DNA of 64,000 nucleotides from a virus: IMG/VR virus record IMGVR_UViG_2930960728_000001, one strand, 5' to 3'. Each line of letters opens with the position of its first letter. Positions within the stretch are counted from its first letter, which is position 1. Under the pieces are notes generated by a model. That model did not search any database and had not been told where the DNA came from. It saw only the letters and a program-made list of their open reading frames with translations. The position numbers and the translations under genes were made by a program. Below, piece after piece: positions 11,672 through 61,753 of this stretch.

Positions 11672-11677
11672 AACTAG

Positions 11678-11709: not shown

Positions 11710-11741
11710 GTACCAAAAATTTATGTAAAGGGTGATTACAA

Positions 11742-12116: not shown

Positions 12117-12126
12117 TCGAAAAGGA

Positions 12127-12297: not shown

Positions 12298-12311
12298 TGA
12301 GGTGAAAAAGT

Positions 12312-29817: not shown

Positions 29818-30223
29818 TGTAACTCACTTTAATTGCCGAATTATCAGAATCCTGTGTTATTCAGTCCACTCATCTCTTAGGAGGTGGGTGGATTTTTTGT
29901 GTTGTCATTTTTTAATAAAAAGGCAAACTATTAACATCGCATGTGTGGTGTTTACAGTTTTCCATAAAAGGTGTAGTTCTGAATACACAGTCTAAAAACA
30001 CGATGCTATCAAAGATTTTGATACGAGCTGTTGTGAAAATTCCGTTTTCATTGTCTAACTGTTGTAGGGATTAAGAAAACCCGGTACAAGAGCCTAAAGT
30101 TGTAATTTTGATGAAAAAAAACAAAAGTAAGTAAAATATCAGTCAGGCCGCTCATCTCTACTGAGGTGAGCGGCCTTTTATGCCATTCATTTTTAATTTT
30201 GAAACTTATAATTTGCGAATTTT

Positions 30224-30430
30224 TTAATGCTGTTTTCTGATGAAGTTCATCCAGATGAGATCTCCAACGTACATAATTAGAAATAAGAAAATCCAAATTC
30301 CAATTGAAGTAGCCCGGTTCCCATTCGAATTAGTAATTCCTGAACCATCAATTTTTCTAAACCATAAAAAAATAACACCTATCAGAAAGACCACTGTTTC
30401 TAAGATAACTGTAAGTCTCCAAATTTTCAT
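30224..30430 (-). CDS. Small two-TM membrane protein
   Basis: 68 aa with two hydrophobic segments; GGGGTAG RBS-like sequence upstream. Confidence 0.55.
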   Translation of the reverse strand: MKIWRLTVILETVVFLIGVIFLWFRKIDGSGITNSNGNRATSIGIWIFLFLIMYVGDLIWMNFIRKQH

Positions 30431-30602
30431 TAGAAAACTACCCCTTCAAGACAATTTTTAAAAATAAATCACAGTGATTTTTATGATGATTTTATTAGGT
30501 TAACTATTATAGTACCCTTTTAACTGAGATTATATGATAATATAGTGGATATTTTCCAAAGCGAGATTAATTACACTATTGCTAAAAATAGGCGGTGGAA
30601 CG

Positions 30603-30980
30603 TTAAATAATTAGTTTTTCTATATCGTGCTTAATACTTTTTATTTCTGATTCCACAAAGGGGATCATGTTTTGATATGTTTTTTCCCCTAATAAGGTAG
30701 GTTTTAAAAAATGAATCCTATGATCTTTATTAGAAGTAACAGAGCTAATCAGGTCTTTCTTAAGCAAATCAGTAGTCTGCATTGAGACAAATGTTTTACC
30801 AATATCATATTTGGAGCAAAAATCTCTAGTAATAAAGGAGTCTTCAAAGTAAATCATTTCGTGTAACATCATAAATTGGATAATACTAATGGTGAAATTT
30901 TCGCTATCTATACGAGATATTCTATTGGTTATTTTTCTAAGTTTCCACGTCTCATCTAACAATTCATCAAAAGACAACAT
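30603..30980 (-). CDS. MarR family transcriptional regulator
   Basis: Winged-helix pattern VSMQTTDLLKKDLI...KDHRIHFLKPTLLG; GGAGG RBS. Confidence 0.72.
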   Translation of the reverse strand: MLSFDELLDETWKLRKITNRISRIDSENFTISIIQFMMLHEMIYFEDSFITRDFCSKYDIGKTFVSMQTTDLLKKDLISSVTSNKDHRIHFLKPTLLGEKTYQNMIPFVESEIKSIKHDIEKLII

Positions 30981-31338
30981 GAAGTCCCTCCAATAATGTG
31001 TTGAAATTTAATTTAATGATTAACAATTACAATAATAACACTAAAAACTATTTTTTTGAATAACTTTCGTGCAGCTTCATATAATGGAGACTTCACCAGC
31101 CACAGATGTTTTTTGAATTAATTGTAAGTCTGACGATCACTTTAAACAACAAAACCAGTGTAAGTGATGGTCAATTGAGTGTGCGCTCGAATCCGTTTGA
31201 TTAGCGATTCCAGATAGACAAGAGTGTCTGTTTTCACAGTATGTAGGGTGGGATGAGCTGCTACATATATTAAGTAAATTGAACGTGTTGGAGTAACAGT
31301 TGAAAGTTTTGTTAATTTGATAGTATATGTACATATTG

Positions 31339-32690
31339 GGTAGCGTCAAGAATCTTGTGTAAATGAAATGCCTTCGTACATATAATATGTATCTAACTTA
31401 AATAAATGATGCTTCCAAGGTGTCCTGGAGTCCTTTGAACCCTCGGTGGATCCGCTTCAGAGACTTCTCGTTATAAACATTAAACTGAGAAACCAGGAAG
31501 CGATCCAGTGAATCTTCCGTTGGAAATTGTTCTTTGTGGTGGGTGGTGCGCTTGAGATGCTTATTAAAGTTCTCAATCAGGTTAGTGGAGTATAGTGATT
31601 GCCGGATAGCTGGTGGAAAGTCCATGAAAGTGAGTAAATTCGGCATTTTAAGCAGATCTTTGATTAATTTGGGATAGGTCTGATGCCAGTTGTTGGCGAA
31701 CTCATTCAGTTTCAGTTTGGCTGCTTCAAGGTTGGCGGCCCGATGAACTTGTTTAAAGTCACTGATCACGGCCTTGCGGTCTTTTACGCGAACTTTGTTC
31801 ATCAGATTCCGCTCAACATGAACCAGGCAACGTTGTCGTTTGGCTTTAGGGAAATGCCGATTCAAGCCTTCATCCAAACCAACTAACCCATCGGCCACAA
31901 ACAACAGCACATCTTTAACGCCCTGCTTGATCAAGGTTCCCAGCAGTTCAGTCCAGATTCCAGTCGATTCCGTTGGCGCCACTTGGTAGTTCAGCACTTC
32001 TTTCGTACCATCTGGACGAATGCCAATCGCAATATGAACGGCTTCTTTTTGAACGGTATCCCGCTTTAACGGCAAGTAAGTGGCATCTAAGAAGATGGCC
32101 GCATATTGTGAAGCCAGTCGACGTTGCTGGAAAGCTTGAACCTGTTCATTGACGGCTTTAGTCATGTTGGAAACCGTGGCTTTGGAGTAGTGAGCACCGT
32201 ACATTTTCTCAATGAGTTCGGCAATTTCAGCAGTGGTAATTCCCTTGGTATACAACTGAATGACCGTTGTTTCTAAATTATCACTGTGCCGACCGTAGGC
32301 TGGCAAGGTATGATTTTCAAACCGGCCATTGCGATCTCGAGGAATGGTTAAGTTAAGTTGGCCGTACTTCGTATCAAACGAGCGCTCATAACTGCCGTTG
32401 CGGTTATTACCAGTGTTAATCCCAGCGTATGAGTAGCGTTCGTAACCCAAAAACTCTGCCAATTCGGTTTGAAGCAGCTGGTTAATCGCAATTTCGAGGT
32501 GGTGACGAAAAACTTCGTCCAAATCTTGCTTTTGGGCTAGTGCAGCGATAATTTCTGTGGTAAGTTCATTCATGGGGAATGCCTCCTGTGATGTTTTCTG
32601 TGGTTACTAAATATCATAAGGGAAGGCATTCCCTATTTCTATACAATTCAGAAATCTTTTATGCATTTACACAAGATATTTTACGCTCTC
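31339..32690 (-). mobile_element. IS256 family insertion sequence
   Basis: Imperfect 27-bp terminal IRs (ggtagcgtcaagaatcttgtgtaaatg / catttacacaagatattttacgctctc) and an 8-bp target duplication ACATATTG at 31331-31338 and 32691-32698. Confidence 0.93.
31398..32573 (-). CDS. IS256 family transposase
   Basis: RNGSYER, IPRDRNGRFE, FLDAT, VADGL, QRCLVH and STNLIENFN motifs. Confidence 0.95.
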   Translation of the reverse strand: MNELTTEIIAALAQKQDLDEVFRHHLEIAINQLLQTELAEFLGYERYSYAGINTGNNRNGSYERSFDTKYGQLNLTIPRDRNGRFENHTLPAYGRHSDNLETTVIQLYTKGITTAEIAELIEKMYGAHYSKATVSNMTKAVNEQVQAFQQRRLASQYAAIFLDATYLPLKRDTVQKEAVHIAIGIRPDGTKEVLNYQVAPTESTGIWTELLGTLIKQGVKDVLLFVADGLVGLDEGLNRHFPKAKRQRCLVHVERNLMNKVRVKDRKAVISDFKQVHRAANLEAAKLKLNEFANNWHQTYPKLIKDLLKMPNLLTFMDFPPAIRQSLYSTNLIENFNKHLKRTTHHKEQFPTEDSLDRFLVSQFNVYNEKSLKRIHRGFKGLQDTLEASFI

Positions 32691-32964
32691 ACATATTGGG
32701 CAACTGTTTAAAGTTAGCATCAATTTAATATATTTATCGGCACTGCCTCTTTATCTAGACCTGTTTTGCCGTAATTATTTAATCTCTGAATGTATTATCT
32801 GTGAACACTGTTTTAACAATGTCTAGAAACCAACCAGTTTTTAATAGAATCTTCTTGCCTTGAAATATCTTCTGCTGATGAAGATAAATGAATTTGTTTT
32901 AAGAAATTATTTTGTACTAAATATGATAAGCGTTAAAATTAAGCCTAATATGATTAGGGGCTAT

Positions 32965-34149
32965 ATGATGCTAGAAAAGATGGCATACAAGGAACTATTT
33001 AGTCATGCGTTTGATATTCCTATTTCAGTTACTTATTGGGATGGTTCAATCGCCACATACGGTGAGGGAACTCAAAATATTGCAATAACGTTTAAGAAAG
33101 AAATTTCGCTTAAATCAATGACATCTGAGCCAACTCTTGTGTTAGCAGAGGCTTATATGAATGGCGAAATTGAAATTGATGGCAGTATACAAGAATTAAT
33201 TACATCTGCTTTTCGAACCGACCATAGTTTTTTAACCAACAATCCCTTCTTGAAACATTTGCCAAGTATTTCTCACTCAGAAAAAAATAGCGAACGAGAT
33301 ATTCAGAAGCATTATGATATTGGGAATGAGTTTTATCGGTTATGGTTGGATAAAACCATGACTTACTCATGCGCTTATTTTGAACATGATAACGATACTC
33401 TCGAAGAAGCACAATTAAATAAGGACCGACACATTATTCATAAGTTGAACCCTGAATCTGGGAAACGGTTGTTGGATATTGGCAGTGGATGGGGCACTTT
33501 ACTATTTATGGCTGCTGAGGAATTTGGACTCAATGCGACGGGAGTAACCTTAAGTCAAGAGCAGTATGATTATACGCAGGAGCAAATTAAGGCTCGTCAC
33601 CTTGAAAGCAAGGTTTCTGTGTTACTTGAAGATTATCGTGAAGTGGATGATAAGTATGATTACGTTACTTCCGTTGGAATGTTTGAGCATGTGGGGAAAG
33701 AAAATTTAGGACTATACTTTAATAAAGTTAAAGACTTGTTGAAGCCTAATGGGCGAGCTTTAATTCATGGAATTACAGGTCAGCATGAAGGAGCCGGCGT
33801 TGACCCATTTTTGAATAAATACATCTTCCATGGTGGGTATATTCCCAATGTTGCCGAAAATTTACGGCACGTTATGGATTCAGGGTTACAATTGACAGAC
33901 CTAGAAACTTTACGTCGGCACTATCAAAGAACATTGGAAATTTGGTATAGCAATTACAATGGTGTTATTGATCAAGTAAGAGAAAAGTATGGAGTCCCAT
34001 TCTCTAGAATGTGGTCGCTATACCTCCAAGCTTGTGCAGGGGCATTTGAATCGGGAAACATTGATGTTATGCAATACTTACTTACAAATGCTCCAAGCGG
34101 AACTGGCCTACCAATGACACGTCAATATGTTTATCAGAACGAAGTATAG
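32965..34149 (+). CDS. cfa: Cyclopropane-fatty-acyl-phospholipid synthase
   Basis: HYDIGNEFY.LWLD..MTYSCAYF, LLDIGSGWG, SVGMFEHVG and RMWSLYL motifs; the usual IFPGG reads IFHGG here. Confidence 0.92.
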   Translation: MMLEKMAYKELFSHAFDIPISVTYWDGSIATYGEGTQNIAITFKKEISLKSMTSEPTLVLAEAYMNGEIEIDGSIQELITSAFRTDHSFLTNNPFLKHLPSISHSEKNSERDIQKHYDIGNEFYRLWLDKTMTYSCAYFEHDNDTLEEAQLNKDRHIIHKLNPESGKRLLDIGSGWGTLLFMAAEEFGLNATGVTLSQEQYDYTQEQIKARHLESKVSVLLEDYREVDDKYDYVTSVGMFEHVGKENLGLYFNKVKDLLKPNGRALIHGITGQHEGAGVDPFLNKYIFHGGYIPNVAENLRHVMDSGLQLTDLETLRRHYQRTLEIWYSNYNGVIDQVREKYGVPFSRMWSLYLQACAGAFESGNIDVMQYLLTNAPSGTGLPMTRQYVYQNEV

Positions 34150-34397
34150 TGAGATCGTCATTGGATAAATCAATGGTGGCGATCTGAAACTAATTGTTAA
34201 TGATTAAGTGTGGAGAGGATAGTTTCAGAATTCTAGGGTCAGATAGGATGCTATTTTTTAATAGCAAATTGCTTTTATTTATGATCATAAATGTTCTAGA
34301 GCACAGGGGGACAGCAAGTAAATAATTCTGAGCGGGGTTATTTGAGTGCTTAAATTCGATATATTAATCTTGAAACTATGTACTAAAATTAGAAAAA

Positions 34398-34630
34398 TGC
34401 TACAGAATTCCTACTACGGCTAGGGTGAAATGCCGGTTTATCAGTATTTTAAAAGAGTTTCCAGACCCCACCTCCGGTATATCAAGGAAATATATGTCTG
34501 TTTAAAAAGAGAAGAAACGTTGATATAACAACGTTCCTTCTCTTTTTTTGTTCTTATAAAATCATATTCATACATACTTATACAAGTTAGTGCTACAGAA
34601 GTGCTATTTTTTTAGAGTGCAATGCTACAT
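34398..34630. other. Putative attP region
   Basis: TGCTACAGAA direct repeats at 34398 and 34591 plus variants at 34601 and 34623 (arm-site-like); candidate core GACCCCACCTCCGGTAT at 34464-34480 resembles a tRNA 3' end; lies beside the integrase stop codon. Confidence 0.6.
34503..34549. terminator. Bidirectional terminator-like inverted repeat in the att region
   Basis: AAAAAGAGAAGAAACGTTG-ATATAA-CAACGTTCCTTCTCTTTTTT. Confidence 0.65.
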
Positions 34631-35824
34631 TTTTATCGATTTTGTAGCATCAATGTTAAAACTATCCCAGTCAACACTGCTACCGAGCTTCGTCATGACG
34701 CGCTCAGCCTTATCGTCCTCAGCCTGCTCTAGTTCTTGAATGATGTGTAGGTAGGTCTTTGTGGTCGTTGAGATACTCTCATGGCCTAATCGATGGCTGA
34801 TATAAGCGATTGAAGCCTTTTGGTACAGTAAAATTGAAGCATGCGTGTGTCGTAGACCGTGGAAGTTAAGTTTTTGATCTATACTAGCTGATTTTAGCAA
34901 TTCTGCTAAACCGTCATTTAGGGCCTTAGAAGAGGGAACCCGCTGGTAGCGAGAGAAGAATACTAAATCCTTAGAGTTCAATATCTCTTTGGATTTAAGA
35001 AATAGTTCTTGTTCATAATGTAACTTCTGCAAAATGTTGATTAAGTTACGGTCTACTTTTATCTTCCGTACGGAGTAAGGATTTTTTGTTGGTCCAAAGT
35101 CACGTTTCTTCCAGTTCCAGGATTTATTAATGTCTATGGTGCCACCTTTAACATCAATATCCTTCCATGTAAGCCCCGCAATTTCTTGTTGTCGCATACC
35201 AGTAAGCAGAGCGGTCAGGCACATGTAAGAAGTTACATCTAAGCCGTGAAGATTGCTCATAGTCACCTTATAGAGCTTAGCCGCGTCATTGTAACTAAGG
35301 TATTTAATTTCCCGTGTATTACTAGAGTCGTAGACTATGTGGGTATTTAGTGTGAAATCCCTTGGTATAACACCGTCATTTACCGCGTTACGTACGGCAG
35401 CATGAATATGGACGTTAATCTTGGCGGCTGATTCTTTAGAGTGTTTTTTTTCGTCTTTTCCATTGCCAAGGCCGTACCAATTAAGAAATTTCTGGTATTG
35501 AGCCGTGTCTATTTTCCGGAGTAGGGTGTTTCCAAAATACTTGGTGATCGTGTTGATCGTGTATTGGTACCTTTCGGCCGTCGCGTCAGCAATATTTGGT
35601 TTCCTGAATATTTTGAACCATTCCGTAAAGTAATCCAAAAATGTGATGTTGCGTTGAGCGATTTTTCCGCCGCTGTGAACTTGTTGTTCTAATTCGATGC
35701 CATATATTTCTGCTTCTTTCTTAGTTCTAAATCCACTTTTGGACTTATAATGGCGCTTGCCATCGGTGCCCTTAAAACTAACACGGGCGATCCATTTTCC
35801 ATTTCCTTTATATACTTCTGCCAT
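34625..35824 (-). CDS. int: Tyrosine integrase
   Basis: N-terminal arm-binding domain (KSGFRTKKEA); TGMRQQE, HGLRHTHAS, RLGH and TYLH catalytic motifs; GGAGG RBS before ATG 35824. Confidence 0.95.
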   Translation of the reverse strand: MAEVYKGNGKWIARVSFKGTDGKRHYKSKSGFRTKKEAEIYGIELEQQVHSGGKIAQRNITFLDYFTEWFKIFRKPNIADATAERYQYTINTITKYFGNTLLRKIDTAQYQKFLNWYGLGNGKDEKKHSKESAAKINVHIHAAVRNAVNDGVIPRDFTLNTHIVYDSSNTREIKYLSYNDAAKLYKVTMSNLHGLDVTSYMCLTALLTGMRQQEIAGLTWKDIDVKGGTIDINKSWNWKKRDFGPTKNPYSVRKIKVDRNLINILQKLHYEQELFLKSKEILNSKDLVFFSRYQRVPSSKALNDGLAELLKSASIDQKLNFHGLRHTHASILLYQKASIAYISHRLGHESISTTTKTYLHIIQELEQAEDDKAERVMTKLGSSVDWDSFNIDATKSIKM

Positions 35825-35866
35825 GGATATTCCTCCTAAATGGAAATTAGTTAACTTGATTTTTAC

Positions 35867-35878
35867 AAACATATGTTC
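35867..35878 (-). promoter_or_regulatory. LexA (Cheo) box-like site upstream of int
   Basis: GAAC-ATAT-GTTT on the minus strand, compared with the Firmicutes consensus GAAC-N4-GTTC. Confidence 0.6.
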
Positions 35879-35927
35879 TCTGAATGGCAAAAAAGAAAAT
35901 CCCGGATAGGGATCTCTTGTATTGCTA

Positions 35928-36001
35928 TGGACCTTGTTAGACTCGAACTTACGACCAAACGGTTATGAGCCGTATGCTCTAACCAACTGAGTTAAGGGTC
36001 C
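35928..36001 (-). tRNA. Degenerate tRNA-Ile2/Met (CAT), possibly pseudo
   Basis: Full cloverleaf GGACCCT...CT CAT AA...TTCGAGT...AAGGTCCA, but with one mismatch in each of the four stems. Confidence 0.7.
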
Positions 36002-36124
36002 AATGAGCCCTGCGAGATTTAGGCCTGCAGCTTTATAAGTTGTTTATTGTGAACTCATATAAGTATGATTCAGATGTTATACTTAATTTGATAGTTTTCC
36101 TTTAAAAATATTTCCTTGTTAAAT

Positions 36125-36222
36125 AAAAAGAGGAAACCCAAAAGTTATTTGGATTTCCTCGAGTCGCGCTCGACTCAATGATAATAAGACTATATTTGTA
36201 ATAGTCGGCGTGCAATTACGCC
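36125..36222 (-). ncRNA. Structured element (three hairpins plus terminator) downstream of the PemK/MazF-like gene
   Basis: Minus strand: GGCGT-aattgc-ACGCC, GACTAT-tacaaat-ATAGTC, GAGTCG-agcg-CGACTC, then GAGGAAATCC...GGGTTTCCTC-TTTTT. Confidence 0.5.
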
Positions 36223-36255
36223 CTAGAACAATCATATCTTATTAAACCGGAAAAT

Positions 36256-37137
36256 TCAAATTAAATTATTTAGTTTTTTCTTAATTGACTTGAGTGCTTT
36301 CTCTGTAACAAAAATATTCCCAGAGATATTCTGTTCGGAAAAACTTGTAATGCGTAATTTGCTAATCGTTGAAATGTTGGATACATCTGCATAAGAGTTA
36401 TTGCCATATTTCTTGGCTTTTTTAAGTAGTGCGGATGAAGCATTGATATGGGAAAGAATAATCTTTCTATAGAATTCCTGATATTTTACTTGTTTAATAT
36501 AATAAATGACTTTCTGTGCAGCTGCTCTTAACTCTTCATTTTCACTTCCTTTTAATAACTTTTGCATTTGCTCCATCTTTTTTTGACTTTCATCTAGAGA
36601 GGAAGGTTCAGTTGTCACGGGAGTAATTCCTTTGTCCTTAAGCTCTTGTTCAAGCCTGTCCCGAAGCGCAAATACTTTCTTTTGCAAGTTCTCAGAGTCA
36701 TTGTTAAATCGTTCAATTCGTTTTGAATTGTTATCAATCAGCTTTTTGGTAGTGCGTATTATCCCCGCCTGAAGTTCAGTTCCTAATTCGATATAGCTTT
36801 TACGGTTTCGTGAAGTTAATGGGACAACGATAAGGGTCTTTTTATGCTGGTTGTCTTTCGCTGATAATACGACAGCGAAATGTGGACCACTCATTTCTGA
36901 GCCAATTTTAATACCAAAGTCAACCATAACCACTGTTCCTGGACGATAGCTATGATAATACTTAGGGAGCGCATCGTCTAGTTCTTTGGAGAGCCAGTAT
37001 CCATATTGATCTATCCAAAAAGGGAGCGCGTTAACCTTAAATTGCTTGTCATCACTTTCATAATAAACATGATTAAAGTTCTTAAGATGAAGTTTCTTCT
37101 CTTCTTCTGTTAATATAACATGGAGTTTTTGGGTCAT
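36256..37137 (-). CDS. PemK/MazF-family protein with a coiled-coil insertion
   Basis: GTVVMVDFGIKIGSEMSGPHFAVVLS...LIVVPLTS N-half and YADVSNISTISKLRI C-half, split by about 120 aa of coiled coil. Confidence 0.8.
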   Translation of the reverse strand: MTQKLHVILTEEEKKLHLKNFNHVYYESDDKQFKVNALPFWIDQYGYWLSKELDDALPKYYHSYRPGTVVMVDFGIKIGSEMSGPHFAVVLSAKDNQHKKTLIVVPLTSRNRKSYIELGTELQAGIIRTTKKLIDNNSKRIERFNNDSENLQKKVFALRDRLEQELKDKGITPVTTEPSSLDESQKKMEQMQKLLKGSENEELRAAAQKVIYYIKQVKYQEFYRKIILSHINASSALLKKAKKYGNNSYADVSNISTISKLRITSFSEQNISGNIFVTEKALKSIKKKLNNLI

Positions 37138-37255
37138 TTATGCAGTACCTCCTTATATTTTAATAGCGCTTAAAGTCTAAAACGGACACAGGTCTATTAG
37201 ATTTTAATGCTTCTCCCCGGAATCGAACCGAGGGGAGTCACCAGACGGAAGCTGA

Positions 37256-37639
37256 TTATTTTTTATACATGGTCAGGGGACTGTTAGACTTTTTGAAATT
37301 GATGTTAAATGAAACTTTCATGTGTTTGTTGGAAACAAGTTTGATGTATCTATTTACACGATCCTTGGTGTAAAAGGGTTCATAACCATTAATTTTGTAG
37401 ATTTTATTACCTAAGTACTTGTATTTGGTGTTATTCAGATAATCTGGATCATTCGCACAGAAATGGTAATAGTTCTTGCCAATCTTAGCGCCACTGTGGA
37501 ATATCTTGTCATGAGGCACCTTCCATGTTCCACGCATCTTTTTTGGCATGCCTTTATGCCAAGTGGACGCTTGTGCTTCGGTTACCGTGAATCCAAAGAT
37601 AGATATTGCTGCTAAAATAGTGATAATTGTTTTCTTCAT
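37256..37639 (-). CDS. Secreted hypothetical protein
   Basis: Signal peptide MKKTIITILAAISIFGFTVTEAQA; Lys/Tyr-rich mature part. Confidence 0.7.
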   Translation of the reverse strand: MKKTIITILAAISIFGFTVTEAQASTWHKGMPKKMRGTWKVPHDKIFHSGAKIGKNYYHFCANDPDYLNNTKYKYLGNKIYKINGYEPFYTKDRVNRYIKLVSNKHMKVSFNINFKKSNSPLTMYKK

Positions 37640-37692
37640 CAGAAAGAAATCCTTTCACAAAATGTAGTTACGTGATTACTGTATATGCCCAG

Positions 37693-38016
37693 CTATTTTT
37701 TTAGCCACTTGGTATTGTAATGGCCTTTAACAACCCAAACATAACCGCTAGTGTTCTTTAGCTTAGAAGACTTCAATGTCCAACTTAAATTGGCTGAATT
37801 ATAAACCTTAATTTTGGTTCCAATCTTTAAGCGCTTTTTTGCATGTGTTTTCCAATTTTGGGGATTAATTTGATAAGCAGTGACGGATTTTTTTACATGC
37901 ATCGTCCGGGTTTTATACCAATAGGAAGAATTGTACCCTGGTAAACTGGCTAATGCAGTAGTGGCTACACTACTTGAAAGCAATGCAACAGTTAATGTTA
38001 AACAGATTTTTTTCAT
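37693..38016 (-). CDS. Secreted hypothetical protein
   Basis: Signal peptide MKKICLTLTVALLSSSVATTALA; basic mature part. Confidence 0.7.
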   Translation of the reverse strand: MKKICLTLTVALLSSSVATTALASLPGYNSSYWYKTRTMHVKKSVTAYQINPQNWKTHAKKRLKIGTKIKVYNSANLSWTLKSSKLKNTSGYVWVVKGHYNTKWLKK

Positions 38017-38077
38017 GCTTTCCTCCTGGAATATGTACAGCTTTTAACGTCATCAGTTTTGGACAGTAGCTAAAAGT

Positions 38078-38095
38078 GAACGTATGTTTTATAAT
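38078..38095 (+). promoter_or_regulatory. LexA box-like site abutting a -10 box
   Basis: GAAC-GTAT-GTTT followed directly by TATAAT, 32 nt before ATG 38127. Confidence 0.6.
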
Positions 38096-38126
38096 TATTG
38101 CAACTAAAACTGGTGAGGTGATATAA

Positions 38127-38297
38127 ATGAATGAATTTGAACCTGTGGTTGAAAGGGCAGAATTGCAGCAAGTTATTCGAGTGGAACATGTTATAGGAAA
38201 AGGAACTGTTGATTCGCCAGTGAGAAAAGTTGTACAGTTCTGGACAACTGATGGCATAATGATTGGCGAAAAAGGAATCAATGAGCTCAATAAATAG
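38127..38297 (+). CDS. Small hypothetical protein (56 aa, absent from the ORF track)
   Basis: Translated by hand: MNEFEPVVERAELQQVIRVEHVIGKGTVDSPVRKVVQFWTTDGIMIGEKGINELNK; GAGGTG RBS. Confidence 0.7.
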   Translation: MNEFEPVVERAELQQVIRVEHVIGKGTVDSPVRKVVQFWTTDGIMIGEKGINELNK

Positions 38298-38308
38298 GGT
38301 TACTTTTA

Positions 38309-38944
38309 CTAGTTTTTGTTTACCAAATTGTGAGCTCGTTTGATTGATGCTTTCATCTCAATGTAATTAATCATGGCCCGAATCCACTCTTTTATATCAG
38401 CAACCTGGAATTCAGGATTCTGTCGATAGTAGTGAGTTTCATCATTTCCAATCCAAGCACTAGCAAGCGCTAACTCCCTGATACTTTCTTCGGGGAGTTT
38501 TTTAATTAGTTTAGATAGAGGGAGTTTTACAGACTCATCTTTGGTAACTAGCTTATTGGTTAGCACAAAATCAGTTACTAAATATTCAAGTGCTTTTCGA
38601 TATCCCATACCAGCAATCTGAGATAGGCCTATTTCTTCTGCTGTAGATGCTTGAGAATACGTCTTAATAAATGACGGCGACATCTTTTCAATGGATTTTG
38701 GAAAAGTCATATTTTCTGGTGAAAATATAGGGCTAACTAATTCAGTTCGCAAATAAGAACCACCGCTGGTGAAGAATAAATTGTAGGCGGTTGCTCGTCG
38801 ACAATTTTCACATCTTGAAACTATTACCTCTACTTCTTCGTTTTCATGAGAGCGGAAGAACGCTGTTTTGCTGAGTTGAGTTTGTATACCTGAATAGTTG
38901 CAGTGCGGACATTTTCTTGGAATATACATAAAGTTTTCGGACAT
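38309..38944 (-). CDS. DUF4145-like protein with N-terminal Zn finger
   Basis: CPHC...CENC; GMGYRKALEYLVTDF and AWIGNDETHY motifs. Confidence 0.8.
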   Translation of the reverse strand: MSENFMYIPRKCPHCNYSGIQTQLSKTAFFRSHENEEVEVIVSRCENCRRATAYNLFFTSGGSYLRTELVSPIFSPENMTFPKSIEKMSPSFIKTYSQASTAEEIGLSQIAGMGYRKALEYLVTDFVLTNKLVTKDESVKLPLSKLIKKLPEESIRELALASAWIGNDETHYYRQNPEFQVADIKEWIRAMINYIEMKASIKRAHNLVNKN

Positions 38945-38954
38945 AAAATTCTCC

Positions 38955-39365
38955 TTAGTCTGATATACACTTTTTAAATCGTGAAATTACAGCATTTAGT
39001 AGATAGTTGGGGATGCCAAATTGCTCCATAAATGGGGATACATTATTTAAGGTATATCCAGTAACATCAACATAAATTGGGATCAAAATGTCTAATCCGG
39101 TCATATTAGCCGCACGTTCATACTTTGACTTGTTAGAAAAACTAGAATAGTAGAGTGTTCCTTCATCGCCATTAACGACGTGTCCTAGTTCATGGGCCAT
39201 CTGGAATGGTATTTCTTTTTCTTCATGCCAATTCGTATTAACAACAATTGTTTTGGTATCAGGGCGGGATGCAGAAGGAGTATGGCTGTCAAAATGGTTA
39301 GTTAAAATTACGGTTATTTTATGATCGTATGCGTATTTCATAAGATTGACGATAATTACGTTCAT
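38955..39365 (-). CDS. ImmA/IrrE family anti-repressor metallopeptidase
   Basis: FQMAHELGHV (HEXXH), KYERAAN; directly downstream of the repressor. Confidence 0.88.
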   Translation of the reverse strand: MNVIIVNLMKYAYDHKITVILTNHFDSHTPSASRPDTKTIVVNTNWHEEKEIPFQMAHELGHVVNGDEGTLYYSSFSNKSKYERAANMTGLDILIPIYVDVTGYTLNNVSPFMEQFGIPNYLLNAVISRFKKCISD

Positions 39366-39369
39366 ACAG

Positions 39370-39750
39370 CTAGTCCTTCTTTCCGCCCCTGAGCAAACGC
39401 TCCATATACTCTAAGTCCTCATCAGATATTATTCGACCTTCAAAGGTCATAATTTTCTTTTTATCGTTGATTTGTTCCTTAAGGTCAACGTATTCGGGCT
39501 TGTCAGGGTCAGAATTGTTGTCAATATAGCCTGCTAACCTCATAAGATGGTCATAATCCGTTTCATATACCTCAGCCAAAATCTTTAGAGTTTCTGGGGT
39601 TGGCTTTATGATATTTCCCCGACGACTTTTGCCTTTTTCTAAATCAGAGATATATGAGTGGCTAAGTTTTCCATTGGTTTTATCGGCTACAGCGCGTAGT
39701 GACTGTGTTCCTCTTAAGGAACGTAAATATGGTCCTAATTTGTCTGCCAT
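39370..39750 (-). CDS. CI/ImmR-like XRE repressor
   Basis: LRSLRGTQSLRAVA...SHSYISDLEKG HTH; divergent from cro. Confidence 0.9.
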   Translation of the reverse strand: MADKLGPYLRSLRGTQSLRAVADKTNGKLSHSYISDLEKGKSRRGNIIKPTPETLKILAEVYETDYDHLMRLAGYIDNNSDPDKPEYVDLKEQINDKKKIMTFEGRIISDEDLEYMERLLRGGKKD

Positions 39751-39771
39751 TGTTTACACCTCCAAATGCAT

Positions 39772-39872
39772 TGTAATCTATAGTTTACAAAAATGATATT
39801 ATTTTTATGTAAGACATGGTTGACAAACGGTATTCTGTGGCATACAATAGTTTTTGTAAGATATGTCTTACA
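39772..39872. promoter_or_regulatory. Genetic switch: three 18-bp operators and the cro promoter
   Basis: TGT-N12-ACA sites at 39772, 39808 and 39855 (near-palindrome TGTAAGATATGTCTTACA); TTGACA(39820)-17 nt-TACAAT(39843). Confidence 0.8.
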
Positions 39873-39890
39873 AGTTGAGAGGTGAATAAG

Positions 39891-40118
39891 ATGCGCAACA
39901 ATATCAAATCCTTACGGCAAGAAATAAAAATGTCACAGACTACGCTGGCAAGAGAAGCTAAGATTTCTCGACCATATTTATCAGATATTGAAAACGGTCA
40001 TGTTCCCAGTTTGATAATTGCTTCTCGTATTGCGGGAGTATTAGGAAAGTCGATTGATGATGTTTTTTTTGCTAAAATGTCGTACATGGTTGACAAACGA
40101 CCTGAGGAGGTGAGCTGA
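39891..40118 (+). CDS. Cro-like XRE regulator
   Basis: IKSLRQEIKMSQTTLAREAKISRPYLSDIENG HTH. Confidence 0.88.
   Translation: MRNNIKSLRQEIKMSQTTLAREAKISRPYLSDIENGHVPSLIIASRIAGVLGKSIDDVFFAKMSYMVDKRPEEVS
40078..40095. promoter_or_regulatory. Fourth operator at the 3' end of cro
   Basis: TGTCGTACATGGTTGACA, sharing ACATGGTTGACAAACG exactly with the 39808 site. Confidence 0.7.
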
Positions 40119-40294
40119 TGAAGGTAAGATTCAGTTCAGAACTCAACGATCGGATTAAGAAATTTAAACCAGAGGGTTTCTGGGAAAGGTTTTCTGATTT
40201 CACTGATAGACACTGGATTTTCGTTAAGTTTGTCTGGCCAGTCATTGTGGCAATCATAGTTCCATTCATAGTTGTGGGGCTAATGCGAAAGTAG
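40118..40294 (+). CDS. Small membrane protein (58 aa)
   Basis: Translated by hand; GGAGGTG RBS; C-terminal TM. Confidence 0.6.
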   Translation: MKVRFSSELNDRIKKFKPEGFWERFSDFTDRHWIFVKFVWPVIVAIIVPFIVVGLMRK

Positions 40295-40387
40295 GTAGCT
40301 CGGATAGCGCTATGTCATACCCAAATTTGAGTTTTACCAGCTGGATTTTCTTTCTCAATTTTGAATTTAACGTTAGGAGGTGAGCTG

Positions 40388-40573
40388 ATGGAGAAAGAAG
40401 AGTTCCAAAGTGCAGTTCTTACAGAACTTCGTAGTTTAAACAAAACGCTCAAGGTTATCGCTAGTAACCAAGAGCGTCACGAAACGTCATTGTCATCGGA
40501 TGAATTGTCCAAAAAAGTCAAAAATGACATCCGGCAAACCATGAGAAACGTAGAGAAAGAATTATTTAGCTGA
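40388..40573 (+). CDS. Small hypothetical protein
   Basis: GGAGGTG RBS, MEKEEFQSAVL start. Confidence 0.6.
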   Translation: MEKEEFQSAVLTELRSLNKTLKVIASNQERHETSLSSDELSKKVKNDIRQTMRNVEKELFS

Positions 40574-40828
40574 TGTGTCGTCAACTAAGAACTCTTCTAG
40601 AAGGTTATGAACTGCTCGAAGAGTGGATACTTGAAAGCTGCTGCTAACTTTAGTGGCGATCTTTGATGCTATGAGATTACTATCCGAATTATTGTTAATG
40701 ATTTCAGTCACGGAATCTCCAATTTTTGATACAAACTTTTCAGTATTCTGGTCGTCCAAGGCAGTTTTAACAATTTTATTGAAACGCTCTTCAAATTCTG
40801 CTTTTTCCATGATTATCACCTCCTTCAA
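40562..40828 (-). CDS. Hypothetical protein, convergent insert
   Basis: GGAGGTG RBS before the internal ATG (MEKAEF). Confidence 0.55.
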   Translation of the reverse strand: MKEVIIMEKAEFEERFNKIVKTALDDQNTEKFVSKIGDSVTEIINNNSDSNLIASKIATKVSSSFQVSTLRAVHNLLEEFLVDDTSAK

Positions 40829-40966
40829 GTATCAATTGTACCAGAGAAGGTGGCTAATATTATTTTTTCAAAGACCGGGGGGTGACATTATGTTCAAATT
40901 TCTAGCAGCGGTATTACTGATTCTCGTGATTGGACACTGTTCATCAAACTAATAGGAGGTGGCAAA

Positions 40967-41131
40967 ATGACACGACTACAGAAAATTCGGTTTGTAGCTG
41001 AAAGTAGCAATCATTCAATGGCAATGATTATGGCTATGGTTGAAGCAAATGGTGATGACTATCTTGGCCGATTGTTCATGATCGAGTGTGCTAAATCCGA
41101 CGACCAGTCATTTGAACTCCAGTATCAATGA
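40967..41131 (+). CDS. Small hypothetical protein (54 aa)
   Basis: Translated by hand (MTRLQKIRFVAES...); AGGAGG RBS. Confidence 0.55.
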   Translation: MTRLQKIRFVAESSNHSMAMIMAMVEANGDDYLGRLFMIECAKSDDQSFELQYQ

Positions 41132-41191
41132 TAACTGTGAGCTTAGGAAAAGTGATTGAATCCAATTTCCAATCACGATGGGAGGAAAAAG

Positions 41192-41701
41192 ATGCAAAGT
41201 AAATTTTCGGAACAACTAACGCTTGCCCTAGATGGGATTCAGGGCTCGCTAACGCATAAGCAAGTAGCTGGTAAGGTTCACGTATCTGTTGGTCAGCTAA
41301 GTCGTTTAAAGAACGGCACTCGTAACACAGACAAGCCAACACGAATATCGTTGGCGGACGCACTGCAAAGTATTTGGCTTAATTTTTCTGGGGCACGGGA
41401 GGATTACCATATTCCGTCTTTTATGAAAAATAAGACCAAGCATAACGATGTGATGGCGGCCTTGTTTCAACAGCGAAAAGAAGAGAATGAGCGGCGACAG
41501 TTGGAAGATGCATTCGATGAGGCCATCGGCACTAAGCCGGAGCTTCGATCACCGCAGCAACAACAACTAATCCGAGATTACTTCAAAGAATATGTTGAAG
41601 AAATTGGGGCTGAGAACACGGACATTGTAATGAAGGCCCAATATGCTGGGGTTCAACTGCAAAGCTATTTTGATAGATATAACAATCAATATGGAGGGTG
41701 A
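41192..41701 (+). CDS. XRE-type HTH early regulator
   Basis: LTHKQVAGKVHVSVGQLSRLKNG HTH; GGGAGG RBS. Confidence 0.72.
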   Translation: MQSKFSEQLTLALDGIQGSLTHKQVAGKVHVSVGQLSRLKNGTRNTDKPTRISLADALQSIWLNFSGAREDYHIPSFMKNKTKHNDVMAALFQQRKEENERRQLEDAFDEAIGTKPELRSPQQQQLIRDYFKEYVEEIGAENTDIVMKAQYAGVQLQSYFDRYNNQYGG

Positions 41702-41705
41702 GGCT

Positions 41706-41981
41706 ATGTCTGCATTTGATCCACAAGCAGTTGCGGAAAAGGTCATTGAGAGTCGTGTTGACGATCTTCTTAACGAAGACCAACAATTTCAAATTTCCGT
41801 TAACATTAAGCAACTTGCCACGATGACAGGTTCCTCAGTATCAACGCTTGAGACAACATTTGTCCCACTGTCATATGTGCAGGAACTGCAACGTAAGGTT
41901 GGCGAAAAAGGCAGAAAACGAGTTTGGATTTATCCAGAAATTCGTGATGCTTGGCTTCGATATCTTGATGAAAGGGGGTAA
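41706..41981 (+). CDS. Excisionase-like / DUF771-like DNA-binding protein
   Basis: IKQLATMTGSSVSTLE HTH and RVWIYPEIRDAW wing. Confidence 0.55.
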   Translation: MSAFDPQAVAEKVIESRVDDLLNEDQQFQISVNIKQLATMTGSSVSTLETTFVPLSYVQELQRKVGEKGRKRVWIYPEIRDAWLRYLDERG

Positions 41982-41986
41982 TTAGA

Positions 41987-42145
41987 ATGGATTTGTTTTA
42001 TTACTATGTCGGCGAGTGTGTGTCATGGTTCGGATTGATTTCTGGGGCAATGTTCCTAGGATTCAAGCTTTCTGAGAGTGTTCACGACATGGGCGGCTGG
42101 AAAGCATGGGCAATGGATTTCTTCGGATTGGAGGACAAAAAATGA
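41987..42145 (+). CDS. Small membrane protein (52 aa)
   Basis: Translated by hand (MDLFYYYVGECVSWFGLISGAMFLGF...); AAAGGGGG RBS. Confidence 0.55.
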   Translation: MDLFYYYVGECVSWFGLISGAMFLGFKLSESVHDMGGWKAWAMDFFGLEDKK

Positions 42146-49831: not shown

Positions 49832-49906
49832 GTTGCTGTAGGCAAATGGTTAAGCCGCCTGATGGTCCGCCACCAGGAGATGCGGGTTCAATTCCCGTCA
49901 GCGACA
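49832..49906 (+). tRNA. tRNA-like element with an abnormal anticodon arm (pseudo)
   Basis: GTTGCTG/CAGCGAC acceptor, GGC...GGTTAAGCC D arm, GCGGG-TTCAATT-CCCGT T arm; anticodon arm CCTG-ATGGTCCGCCAC-CAGG. Confidence 0.55.
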
Positions 49907-50011
49907 TTGGCGAGCATTACAAAATGGGAGGCGACTCCCCTTCATTTAAGCGCATGTTCTAGCTCGCCAAACTCCTTCATAAAATTGACCGGCCTGCATA
50001 ACCGGTCTTTT

Positions 50012-50085
50012 GGACCTTTAACTCAGTTGGTTAGAGTAGACGGCTCATAACCGTTCGGTCGTAGGTTCGAATCCTACAAGGTCCA
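50012..50085 (+). tRNA. tRNA-Ile2/Met (CAT)
   Basis: Intact cloverleaf GGACCTT/AAGGTCC, ACTC/GAGT, GACGG-CT CAT AA-CCGTT, GTAGG-TTCGAAT-CCTAC; body resembles Firmicutes Ile2 tRNA. Confidence 0.9.
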
Positions 50086-50091
50086 TTAAGT

Positions 50092-50577: not shown

Positions 50578-51651
50578 GTGTCAATATATTATTCGGGTAT
50601 TTATGGGGGCTGGTGTCCACTAATAGCATTGGGGCATTAATGAGCCAGGTGCAGTTATCATTAAGAAAAATATTTTTGGAAAAAAAGTGCAAAAAAATTT
50701 TTTTATCCTTTGGGGAATTATTGCTGAATCTTTGGATGGTTGGGACTCAGAGTTAAATGTTTTAAAAAACAGGTTACATATGGAACAGCCTTTTGACTTC
50801 TATGTACTTTTTAATTCTTTGCCGAATAAAATTGTTATTGCGTTTTCATCACAAAAAGCAACACGAGGAAATTGTAATCTTCTATTTGATGAAGCTGTCC
50901 TGTCTAGCGAAGTGGATACCATACTAAAAAAACGTGCAAAGATTTTATCTGGTATTGAATATTCGAAGTGGATATCTATACCAGTGGAGTTTGTTAAGGA
51001 ATTTTCAGCAGAATTAGATGAAAAATTAGGTGTCAATCAAGATATAGATACTACTGCTGATTTAAGGAAATTAGGAGAAAGTATTTGGCATAAGACTTTG
51101 CAATTAAATCATAGCCAAGATAAAAACATTTTTAAGTTTAAGAAAGAAGAGGTGGAGACTATGGATTTTAATCCGATCTTTAAAGCACGTAATTTGACAG
51201 TTGATAATAAATTAGCATTTGGAATTCTACAGTTTGATTCAAAAAGATCAGCATTCTTTGACGATTTAATTAAACCAGTGATTGAAAAGGAATTTCAAAT
51301 TAACGTAGTGAAATCCGGTGATATGTTTGATGCTAATAATTCCAACATCATGGAAAATATTTGGACTAGTATCAATACTTCTAAGTTTATTATTTGCGAT
51401 CTGAGTGGGAAAAATCCTAATGTTTTTTATGAATTGGGGATTGCTAATACAATTGGTAAACCGGTTATAACGATCTGTGATGAAGATTCGTTTAAGAAAG
51501 ACTATGACGGTAAGCTACCCTTTGATGTATCTACCACGAATACTATTTTTTATAGTGACACAGCAGTTGGGCTAAGAAGTTTGAATCTAAACTAAAAGCG
51601 ACCGTAAAGTCGATTATTACTGGTCAACCGATATCTGGTAATTTTTATTAA
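50578..51651 (+). CDS. Moron with C-terminal nucleoside 2-deoxyribosyltransferase/TIR-like domain (ORF 50687..51595; probable homopolymer frameshifts at both ends)
   Basis: IMENIWTSINTSKFIICDLSGKNPNVFYELGIANTIGKPVITI...LPFDV motif; GGAGG RBS before GTG 50578; one added G near 51570 extends it to ...PISGNFY* at 51651. Confidence 0.7.
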
Positions 51652-51708
51652 ATACAATCAACGTCCTTCGGGCGTTTTTATTTTGCCCAAAATTAGGAGG
51701 TGGCCGGC

Positions 51709-51885
51709 ATGGCCCAGATGGTAAATACAAAATTTGGCCTTGTCAGCCGCACAGAGGCACGTTGTTTGGGCGAGTTAGAGCGACAGCTTAAAGATGGACG
51801 GTGGCAGCGTAAAAAGCCACAGCAGCCACGTAAACCACGTATTACGGTGTGGAGAAAAAATAGAGTAACGAGCGTGAAAAAATAA
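51709..51885 (+). CDS. Repeat copy of the small basic protein (82..258)
   Basis: Identical translation. Confidence 0.55.
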   Translation: MAQMVNTKFGLVSRTEARCLGELERQLKDGRWQRKKPQQPRKPRITVWRKNRVTSVKK

Positions 51886-51922
51886 AAGAAGACCAGATTT
51901 TGGTCTTCTTAAAAATGATAAT

Positions 51923-52138
51923 TTATTTATCGTCTTTATCTAACTTTTCCTTTACGTCATCAACCGTATCTTTAACAGCATCTTTGGCATCTGACAGTTT
52001 ATCTTTAGCCTTACCTAGAATACCTTGACCCTTACCTTCAGCTTCACGGGCCTTGTCGTTCGTAACCTTGCCTTCAACTTCTTTAGCTTTTCCACTTACC
52101 TTATCTTTGGTGCTATCAATCTTGTCATCTAGACTCAT
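51923..52138 (-). CDS. csbD: Repeat copy of csbD
   Basis: Identical translation to 296..511. Confidence 0.8.
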   Translation of the reverse strand: MSLDDKIDSTKDKVSGKAKEVEGKVTNDKAREAEGKGQGILGKAKDKLSDAKDAVKDTVDDVKEKLDKDDK

Positions 52139-52624
52139 AATATAACCTCCCATAATGTATTTGTTACAACAGTATTATTCCACATTTTAATTTGCTTGTC
52201 TAATAAGGAGATCCTGCAAGAGATAGTGTAAATGACACTTATAAATTTAAATTTTCAGATTTTGAATCAAGCATCACTCGCAAAATAGTGGTGCTTTTTC
52301 TGTAGGTGAAATCACAAAAGCAAAGGATGAGAGCAATGAACATCACAGTTAAGCTTAGTCCAGAAAACGTAGCTCAATTTTCATGGCTTATTCGTATAGC
52401 CAAGAAATAGAGTATGAAGGTTCTTACTGTTACGTCACAGGGATGGAAAGGAATGTCCATGGTGATTTTTATGCCCAACTAAGTCCGACGCCAACAAATG
52501 AACTGACCGAAAAACAACGGAAAAATTTGTTTGCTGAAAAGTTTATTCGGACACGTTGGTTGATTAGTCTCGGTATTTAGCAGCAATTACAAAACAACAC
52601 GGATGTGGGAGGTGGTGAGCACGG

Positions 52625-53377
52625 TTGTCAAGACGAAGAAATCCAGACCGGGACAAGGCTAAATCGATTTGGCTGGAATCCGGAAAACAGGAGCCGCTTA
52701 AAGATATTGCCGCAGAGCTGGGTGTGTCCGCTTCGACGGTCCGTAAGTGGAAATCGACGGACCATTGGGACGAGAACGCGAAAAGGAGCGCTCCGATTCA
52801 AACGGAGCGTTACGATTCACTCCACGAGAATCATAATGCAGTTGGTAACCATGGTGGGGCGCCGCCGCACAATCATAATGCGGTCACTCATGGCCTGTTC
52901 GCTAAGTGGCTTCCTGATGAAACCAGCGATATTCTGCAGGTTGTGGAGCAACAATCGCCGGCAGATATTATCTGGCAAAACATCACGCTGCAGTACACGG
53001 CAATTATCAGGGCACAGCAAATTATGTTTGTGCAGGATCAGTCTGATATGAGTAATGAAGTGTCTAGCATTGGAAAGGTTGAGTCCTATGATGTGCAGTA
53101 TGCGTGGGACAAACAGGCCACCTTTATGGCGGCACAGTCTCGGGCAATGGGGACGCTAGGGAACTTGATTAAGCAGTTCGTAGCAATTGCTGATGAAAAT
53201 GATATCCGGCGCAAGCGTATCACGTTGATGGAGGCCCAAGTTGACAAGGCTAAAGCAGAAGTTGCTCAGCTTAAGCGTGATAGCGACCGTGATAACCTGC
53301 CGCTACCGACATTCGTTGATGACGTACCAGAAGATGATGAAGAGATTGGAGGAGATGCCGATGGTAACGACAGCTAA
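52625..53377 (+). CDS. terS: Repeat copy of the terminase small subunit (intact)
   Basis: Identical 250-aa translation. Confidence 0.85.
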   Translation: MSRRRNPDRDKAKSIWLESGKQEPLKDIAAELGVSASTVRKWKSTDHWDENAKRSAPIQTERYDSLHENHNAVGNHGGAPPHNHNAVTHGLFAKWLPDETSDILQVVEQQSPADIIWQNITLQYTAIIRAQQIMFVQDQSDMSNEVSSIGKVESYDVQYAWDKQATFMAAQSRAMGTLGNLIKQFVAIADENDIRRKRITLMEAQVDKAKAEVAQLKRDSDRDNLPLPTFVDDVPEDDEEIGGDADGNDS

Positions 53378-54689
53378 GCGACCGAAGATAAAGATTAAGT
53401 ACCTGATTGGTCATGGCTACAATGAGTTTTGGCGTGACCGACACTTTTTTCGCGTAGTCAAGGGTTCCCGTGGATCTAAGAAGTCTCGGACGACTGCACT
53501 GAACTTCATCTACCGAATTATGAAGTATCCTTGGTCTAACCTACTGGTGGTCCGCCGGTACTCCAACACCAATCATGATTCGACGTACACGGTGCTTAAA
53601 TGGGCGATTAACCGACTTGGGGTTAGTCGCCTTTTCAAATGCAACGAAGGAAAACCGGAGATTACTTACCTACCCACCGGTCAGAAGATTATTTTCCGAG
53701 GGTTGGATGATCCCTTGAAGGTCACCTCAGTTGACGTGGATACGGGAATTCTTAGCTGGGCTTGGTTTGAAGAAGCCTACGAGATAGAGAACAGTGATAA
53801 GTTTGAAACCGTTGTTGAATCTATTCGTGGGAGTTTAGATGATCCCTATGCTGAGCACCAGTACGTTCCGGCTGACGAATTAATCAAGCGGGAGAAGTGG
53901 AAGAAGGAGTTCTTCAAGCAAATCACGCTAACCTTTAACCCTTGGTCGGAACGGCATTGGTTGAAACCAATGTTTTTTGACCCGGAGACACGTAAGCCAG
54001 ATGTTTTTGCTCGAACGACTACCTTTAGGGTCAACGAGTGGCTTGATAAGCAAGACAGGCAAAGATACCTAGACTTGTATCGAACTAACCCAGACGGGCT
54101 CAGATTGTCTGTGACGGCAACTGGGGAGTTGCTGAAGGCTGGTATTTGAGAACTGGGTTGTTGAGGACTTTGATGTCAACAAAGTAGTGGCTGAGTCGGA
54201 TGGCGTGGGTCACGGATGGACTTTGGTTCACTCATGACCCACGACCTTTGCTGAAGCTGCTATTAATCGCGAGACCAAGGATATCTGGATTTTTAAAGAG
54301 TTGTATCAGAAAGCTATGACGACACAGGATATCTTCGATTGGTTGGACGATAACCACTACTTAAAGTCCGATATTGGGCGATTGTGCTGAACCTCGATTG
54401 ATTGATGAGTTACAGGCTAAAGGCGTGCGGCGTATGCATGCGTCGATTAAAGGCCCTGATTCAATCGACTATGGATCAACTTCTTGCAGGCTATCGAATC
54501 CATATCCTGCCTAGTTGTGTGCACGCCATCGAGGAATTTAACACCTACGTCTTCGATCGTGATAAGGACGGAAACTGGCTGAATAAGCCGGTTGACGCCA
54601 ATAATCACTTTATTGACGCGTTACGTTACGGATTAGAAAAGTACATCATTCAATACGAATCACTAGAGAAGCGCTTCGGCGTTGTATAA
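53361..54689 (+). pseudogene. terL: Repeat copy of terL, frameshifted by probable sequencing deletions
   Basis: Matches 1737..3074 apart from single-base losses. Confidence 0.8.
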
Positions 54690-54705
54690 GCAAGGAGGTG
54701 AGTGA

Positions 54706-56043: not shown

Positions 56044-56045
56044 TC

Positions 56046-61741: not shown

Positions 61742-61753
61742 GGAGGTAGCTAA

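Follow-up and report, generated by a model that had tools for sequence, protein, structure and literature searches.

How is a MazF-like nuclease tolerated in a lysogen when no gene for a protein antitoxin lies beside it, and do the hairpins that follow its gene have a part in this? The question is raised by a 293-aa protein encoded in the window (the whole 64,000-nt stretch of viral DNA that we analysed; G+C content 44%), the coding sequence of which is followed by a compact series of RNA hairpins. The original prediction took the two for an undescribed toxin-RNA pair.

The locus and its protein

Since positions 1-12471 and 51629-64000 of the window are 99.2% identical over 12.4 kb, the window comprises either a pair of related prophages or a tandem polylysogen. 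Host-like genes (30603-34149) lie between the two related prophages, and the gene of interest and its RNA are located at the left end of the second one (Table 1). The cI/ImmA operon (38955-39750) is located upstream of the slot that is occupied by Sma-like genes (see below) in relatives. In the window three minus-strand genes without a Pfam family (37256-38944) separate the Sma-like gene from ImmA: two encode small signal-peptide proteins (127 and 107 aa) and the third a protein of 211 aa, the N-terminal part of which has a CxxC...CxxC motif. Probably these, too, are morons expressed in lysogeny, e.g. exclusion proteins. A 45-nt tRNA-like piece (37209-37253, minus strand) sits immediately upstream of the cassette, the border of which, at 37206, directly follows it; an acceptor-like stem (GCUUC/GAAGC) can be recognised in it, as can a perfect T-arm (GGUUCGAUUCC), but it lacks the D and anticodon arms and may be a tRNA remnant or the core of an old attachment site. 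Elsewhere in the prophage, ARAGORN reports a plus-strand tRNA with the four-base anticodon tccg, to which it gives no identity (49832-49906), and beside it lies a second tRNA-Met (50011-50086, plus strand).

Table 1. Features of the locus, in window coordinates
Feature	Position	Strand	Basis or remark
cfa-synthase gene	32860-34149	-	host side of the second prophage
Tyrosine integrase of the prophage	34625-35890	-	context
tRNA-Met gene	35927-36002	-	between cassette and integrase; context, outside the module
Cassette (gene, RNA and spacers)	36003-37205	-	missing in related sequences
Predicted small RNA, ~100 nt	36125-36224	-	folding, descriptor and covariance models
H4, terminator, 13 bp	36130-36160	-	U-tract 36125-36129
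H3	36161-36176	-	GAGUCG/CGACUC; abuts H4
A/U linker, 11 nt	36177-36187	-	single-stranded, between the hairpin pairs
H2	36188-36206	-	GACUAU/AUAGUC
H1	36207-36222	-	GGCGU/ACGCC; abuts H2
Predicted sigma-A promoter	36231-36259	-	-35/-10 boxes, position conserved in relatives
-10 box, TATGAT	36236-36231	-	17-nt spacer after the -35 box
-35 box, TTGAAT	36259-36254	-	overlaps TGA stop codon 36258-36256
Sma-family gene, 293 aa	36256-37137	-	ORF list, Pfam, PHROG, AF2 model, BLASTP
ImmA-type metalloprotease	38955-39365	-	lysogeny operon
cI-like XRE repressor	39370-39750	-	lysogeny operon; faces a cro-like gene

Pfam recognises only part of the protein: PemK_toxin (PF02452) matches residues 66-124, i.e. 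profile positions 2-61 of 109, with 44.2 bits against a cut-off of 23.1. The C-terminal half of the barrel was matched by a profile search against the MazF chains of the PDB, and the alignment of the 134-homologue profile with solved MazF/PemK chains falls into two parts, profile positions 62-111 and 213-255; a search of the PDB with the single protein sequence returned coiled-coil noise only. AF2 modelling gave a poor result from the single sequence (pLDDT 52.9) and a confident one with the homologue alignment (pLDDT 93.8, pTM 0.82). In the latter model strands are found in 68-119 and 248-259, with a C-terminal helix at 279-292. The barrel is thus split into 68-119 and 248-292, with a helical insert of about 123 aa (121-243) placed between the fourth and fifth strands. 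This insert is an antiparallel helical hairpin with a short middle helix (helices 121-168, 181-195 and 201-243), and both it and an N-terminal helical domain (helices within 3-53) pack confidently on the barrel. The top PDB matches of the model in Foldseek are the MazF proteins of S. aureus, B. subtilis and E. coli (probability 1.0; TM by target 0.70-0.77 against 9g1y, 4mzm, 1ne8 and 5cr2), with the alignment crossing the insert; AlphaFold DB also contains clusters with the same extended architecture. The prediction of a PemK/MazF fold split by about 120 aa of coiled coil is therefore borne out by two-piece profile alignment, AF2 model and Foldseek alike.

The architecture is common. While a word-based homologue search yielded only two proteins, an exhaustive HMMER search (E ≤ 0.001) yielded 690 representative clusters that share it, nearly all of 200-330 aa and aligned end to end. 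In MazF the catalytic Arg is R25 in B. subtilis and R29 in E. coli; in the profile alignment this Arg is replaced by His86, which falls on B. subtilis Arg25, while Thr108 falls on Thr48. His86 is invariant in the 134 homologues, as are Pro106 and Lys260, and the substitution of His for Arg noticed in the original prediction holds throughout them. Also in agreement with that prediction, no small protein antitoxin accompanies the gene: in the loci examined we found no conserved small ORF of MazE/PemI type beside Sma-like genes, the neighbours of which are cI, ImmA or variable morons. Canonical MazEF/PemIK modules thus share with the window protein the toxin fold and the Thr/Ser catalytic position, and differ from it in having a MazE/PemI gene and a catalytic Arg where this family has an invariant His; the 123-aa insert and a 60-aa N-terminal extension further set the window protein apart from canonical MazF. 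As judged from these alignments and models, the protein is a predicted nuclease of MazF fold with a His/Thr active-site pair.

The family itself turned out to be already described. Sma, or FS_Sma, was reported in 2022 as a single-gene anti-phage system (PMC12409344, PMC13660305) that is expressed in the lysogenic state and targets non-helper phages (PMC12409344). In both Sma and the chromosomal FS_Sma of RN4220 the two ends are MazF-like and the central region varies in length (PMC13660305), a description that, judging by its homologues and the AF2 model, the window protein fits. PHROG 1412, which also takes in streptococcal relatives, covers the full length of the protein (E 3e-46); no model of PADLOC-DB v2.0.0 matches it. 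BLASTP aligns residues 22-289 with ORF005 of PT1028 at 28% identity (E 2e-29), and the family HMM scores ORF005 at 1.2e-74. The 'phage PT1028' record is the satellite SaPIpT1028 and ORF005 its only PemK match; ORF005 is therefore Sma by elimination, and the window protein a distant member of the family, an assignment of which we are highly confident. The two have in common full-length homology, split MazF ends, a solo gene and a place in a lysogeny-expressed region of a mobile element. They differ in sequence (28% identity), in that the window element is a Lactobacillaceae-type prophage, and in the position of the gene, which in the window is upstream of int and in the satellite follows it.

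The closest relatives of the protein come from Lactobacillaceae, and among phage records the gene recurs in temperate phages and satellites of Staphylococcus and Streptococcus. About 60 loci have the order cI-ImmA-Sma-like-(morons)-int on one strand, many of them with an XRE gene directly upstream of the Sma-like gene at gaps of about 30 nt; the Sma-like gene is upstream of int in phages and downstream of int in SaPIs. One locus (L023:2139-3888) carries two Sma-like genes in tandem. The superinfection-immunity gene orf203 of Sfi21, which occupies the same int/ImmA slot, is unrelated (hhalign probability 0.1) and belongs to PHROG 11491.

The small RNA 3' of the gene

The hairpins predicted downstream of the gene are real and fall in DNA devoid of ORFs (none of at least 40 aa on the minus strand of 36003-36255), but they number four, H1-H4, the last being the terminator. 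The minus strand of 36122-36224 folds at -40.9 kcal/mol (z = -8.2), with the minimum free energy structure making up 73% of the ensemble. Since H4 also serves as the terminator of the gene itself, only H1-H3 are informative about a separate RNA.

Such an RNA would be transcribed from the promoter that overlaps the stop codon. A -35/17/-10 promoter ending 5-6 nt before H1 scores at least 9/13 in 16 of 19 loci, compared with 4.3% of random positions, and its -35 box often overlaps the stop codon in relatives as well; SaPIpT1028 has TTGACT-17-TATATT at the equivalent place. Promoter-like hexamers over 35800-37700 were fewer in our scan than in shuffles. In one food-fermentation metatranscriptome, contigs cover only 36348-36642 of the coding sequence, and none of the RNA-seq reads fall on the small RNA of the window element.

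We gathered about 60 loci by protein similarity alone and inspected the DNA that follows the Sma-like genes. The first intrinsic terminator lies 100-150 nt past the stop codon in 89% of 45 distinct flanks; among 203 further ORFs of this DNA the share is 4.4%. Local folds place several hairpins between stop and terminator. A strict descriptor (perfect stems, H1 abutting H2, a linker of 4-22 nt, H3 abutting the terminator) picks out the four-hairpin layout in 20 flanks, whereas dinucleotide shuffles hardly ever yield it. At the primary sequence level the similarity is low: blastn of the window flank against phages gave a match limited to the tRNA-Met part. Since MAFFT and RNAalifold misaligned the hairpins of the flanks and recovered the terminator only, we resorted to iterated covariance models.

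Model R1, seeded with eight similar flanks and with the window left out, found 36121-36226 (minus strand) at 36.2 bits (E 2.5e-4); model R2 scores the window RNA at 69.7 bits (E 6.7e-11). In 342 kb R2 makes 24 matches at E < 1e-3, and 22 of these are directly 3' of a Sma-like gene; one of the other two follows a decayed Sma-like pseudogene (L008) and one is at a contig end (L041). A match of R2 inside a membrane-protein ORF (L078) is probably false. In each of two whole genomes the sma flank is the sole R2 match. The gene was present in 22 of 396 Lactobacillaceae genomes, the loci of which were fetched by protein: the same RNA class follows six more genes, to which a weak match at L088 (18.8 bits) may be added, and the other Lactobacillaceae Sma-like genes are followed by different multi-hairpin classes with promoter and terminator at the same distance. 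The RNA classes are highly divergent, with linker and loop sequences differing between them, and the SaPIpT1028 flank, which has three hairpins, reaches only 22 bits with R2 (E 0.13).

Covariation analysis of the 3' flanks, as called for by the original prediction, was done both on the sequences used for model building and on a set of 14 that had been kept out of it. Cells assigned to base pairs were paired in 97.8% of cases in the former set and 96.1% in the latter, compared with 71% and 68.7% in shuffles and 37-50% and 38-53% when the partners were slid, although the percentages paired are inflated because the alignments were fitted to the covariance model. Compensatory double changes were seen at 23 of 25 pairs in the model-building set and at 24 of 25 in the held-out set, and they occur in every helix, H1-H3 included. 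G-U pairs outnumber A-C pairs by 36 to 10, as expected for an RNA on the strand of the gene; for H1-H3 alone the bias, 16 to 7, is weak. The prediction had staked itself on conservation of the hairpins among homologues, and the RNA indeed recurs 3' of Sma-like genes, covaries and has its own promoter. Taken together, this makes it very probable that the hairpins belong to a real small RNA gene that is linked to the Sma-like gene.

The description of the RNA as non-repetitive is less secure. The window RNA can be read as two hairpin-pair units, and the Staphylococcus phage versions contain plainly duplicated hairpins: in those flanks one hairpin appears twice with compensatory differences (GCCG..CGGC, GCUG..CAGC). 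The 6 nt before H1 and the 6 nt before H3 share a UAY(A/U) consensus, and the copy before H1 may be just transcription start context; in a test for internal repeats these 6-nt copies were no more alike within than between loci (p = 0.064).

Additional RNA matches were noted in a few loci. At L041:3960-4074 (minus strand) a class-A RNA match of 64 bits, with upstream DNA that runs off the contig, lies on the opposite strand and converges on the class-B RNA of that locus's Sma-like gene. In two streptococcal phages the stretch from the Sma-linked RNA to the integrase gives sub-threshold Rfam matches on the opposite strand, one to ctRNA_pT181 (L003:3348-3444, minus strand; 47 bits) and one to the S. 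pyogenes sRNA Spy779816 (L001:3332-3421, minus strand; 38 bits), and these phages may have a second small RNA there.

Sau-63 and the persistence of the RNA

One member of this group of RNAs has a name. The flank of the Staphylococcus phage YMC/09/04/R1988 matches the Rfam model sau-63 (RF02394) with 51.7 bits (E 7e-7), below its gathering threshold of 100 bits. An RNA-first pattern scan of viral contigs returned 26 loci, all 26 of which have a Sma-like coding sequence upstream on the same strand. One of our loci, L122, carries a bona fide sau-63 (128 bits, above gathering) that starts about 40 nt past the Sma-like ORF, and from the promoter there (TTGAAT-17-TATAAT) transcription would start with base 1 of the Rfam model. 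The link between Sau-63 and Sma thus comes from viral-contig loci, and our literature search found no published report of it. Sau-63 is an RNA of ~100 nt on Northern blots, encoded in SaPIn2 (vSa-alpha) of strain N315 (PMC3053349, Table 1), and its level is 16-fold higher in serum in USA300 (PMC4752604). The RN4220 FS_Sma gene is also located in the vSa-alpha island (PMC13660305, PMC12829572). An Rfam scan of 30000-42000 of the window at E ≤ 1 gave no sau-63 match and nothing at the window RNA; no sequence match between the two RNAs is detectable, and the likeness is one of place and shape. Both RNAs are ~100 nt long, directly follow a Sma-like gene, have their promoter at its stop codon and share the layout H1|H2-linker-H3|H4 with the terminator last. 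Sau-63 is the S. aureus equivalent of the window RNA.

We then compared how gene and RNA fare in related sequences. In contigs of three runs, from two samples, 37206 is followed immediately by 36002, so that exactly the cassette is skipped. This hints that gene and RNA form a self-contained unit, a hint rather than proof because the joint has only 28 nt on its shorter side. Where the gene has decayed, the RNA is still there. It is intact beside the L008 pseudogene, the split genes of L054 and L002 and the L104 gene with internal stops; in L015, a Logan contig from another sample that corresponds to window 35856-37236 at 99.7% identity, the start codon is changed from ATG to ATT while the RNA region is unchanged. 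In L008:2200-5016 a decayed Sma-like pseudogene with its RNA (3443-3544) is followed by an intact gene with a second RNA (4932-5016). An orphan RNA (L077:1501-1592, minus strand; 53.5 bits) has the promoter TTGAAC-17-TAATAAT and a 63-aa ORF upstream, with no Sma-like ORF nearby. Conversely, among genes with readable flanks we found no intact Sma-like gene that lacks a structured flank. An RNA that outlasts its gene would be the asymmetry expected of a toxin-antitoxin pair, without being proof of one.

Possible roles of the RNA

The best explanation that we can offer, with a probability somewhat short of even, is that the prophage encodes an anti-phage (abortive-infection) nuclease of the Sma family together with a dedicated small RNA gene that silences it in a type III-like manner. 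That the RNA acts as antitoxin or as a direct regulator of the nuclease is a tentative reading. The RNA would be made constitutively in the lysogen and, like the antitoxin RNAs of type III systems, would bind the nuclease and keep it inactive; with its two hairpin-pair units it could correspond to a MazF-like dimer. Upon infection the nuclease would be freed, either because a phage product engages the helical insert or the N-terminal domain or because the RNA decays once transcription by the host has been shut off, and the freed nuclease would cleave RNA and abort the infection. In the former case the coiled coil may be the phage sensor, as originally suggested.

The type III systems ToxIN, CptIN and TenpIN combine a Kid/MazF-related endoribonuclease with a structured cis RNA, have no protein antitoxin and act by abortive infection. 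In these systems several tandem repeats upstream of the toxin gene make up the RNA; a terminator stands between this array and the gene, and the toxin processes the RNA. Unlike such an array, the window RNA is located downstream of the gene, has its own promoter and comprises at most two units. This difference from the known multi-repeat arrays speaks against the antitoxin reading, as do the publication of Sma as a single-gene system, the orphan RNA of L077 and the divergence of the RNA classes.

The RNA might instead be a moron in its own right, a trans-acting regulatory sRNA with targets among host or phage mRNAs that is only a fellow passenger of the Sma-like gene; control of the nuclease would then be exerted otherwise. 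The serum induction of Sau-63 in USA300 (16-fold; PMC4752604), the A/U-rich single-stranded linker between the hairpin pairs and the existence of an orphan copy without a Sma-like gene are in line with this. Yet the sequences of linker and loops differ from class to class, so that there is no common target seed; the linkage survives the rearrangement that places the gene upstream of int in phages and downstream in SaPIs; the sma flank is the only copy in two genomes; and each of the 26 RNA-first matches is tied to a Sma-like coding sequence. We regard a trans-acting sRNA as unlikely. A similarly low probability is assigned to a true single-protein nuclease that is auto-inhibited by its N-terminal helices or insert, or held by cI/ImmA-type proteins, until a phage protein switches it on. 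Sma is indeed called single-protein and is active when cloned (PMC13660305, PMC12409344), its N-terminal domain is conserved, the AF2 model confidently packs both this domain and the insert against the barrel, and an XRE gene is directly upstream in many loci at gaps of about 30 nt. That XRE protein is the phage repressor with its divergent cro partner, however, and in the window three unrelated genes come between the Sma-like gene and ImmA/cI; moreover, auto-inhibition leaves the conserved promoter and the covarying H1-H3 after the stop codon unexplained.

The hairpins might also be a cis-acting 3' end and nothing else, i.e. an mRNA stabiliser, terminator or insulator of the lysogenic operon, with the promoter boxes being fortuitous or serving downstream genes. 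H4 is a canonical terminator, and promoter-like hexamers are frequent because the sequence is AT-rich. Against this, the boxes stand at a fixed 5-6 nt from H1 in the 16 of 19 loci (random positions, 4.3%), the predicted start is the first base of the Rfam sau-63 model, and the ~100-nt Sau-63 RNA forms a discrete band (PMC3053349). Nor can the promoter drive downstream genes, since a terminator follows it directly. This makes a purely cis-acting 3' end very improbable.

The pair that the original prediction took for undescribed thus includes a protein of a known family, Sma/FS_Sma (PMC12409344, PMC13660305) and PHROG 1412; it is the conserved RNA partner, present also at the family prototype, that appears to be unreported. 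The published description of Sma contains no RNA partner, and defence-system catalogues list Sma as a one-gene system without known silencing. The finding of a conserved RNA gene of ~100 bases 3' of Sma-family genes means that Sma systems may be protein-plus-RNA pairs. If true, an RNA partner would account for the tolerance of a MazF-fold nuclease in the absence of MazE, extend the RNA-antitoxin (type III-like) logic to a downstream, self-promoted RNA and assign a function to the validated S. aureus sRNA Sau-63. Cloning and scoring of Sma systems should then retain 110-150 nt past the stop codon. More broadly, and with the caution due to a proposal that we hold to be possible rather than probable, the 'single-protein' Sma systems may be two-component protein-RNA modules that add a new branch to the type III-like toxin-antitoxin systems. 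In this branch a two-unit hairpin RNA with its own promoter, encoded immediately past the stop codon (Sau-63 and its many divergent relatives), would neutralise a His-dependent MazF-fold nuclease in hundreds of Bacillota prophages and satellites.
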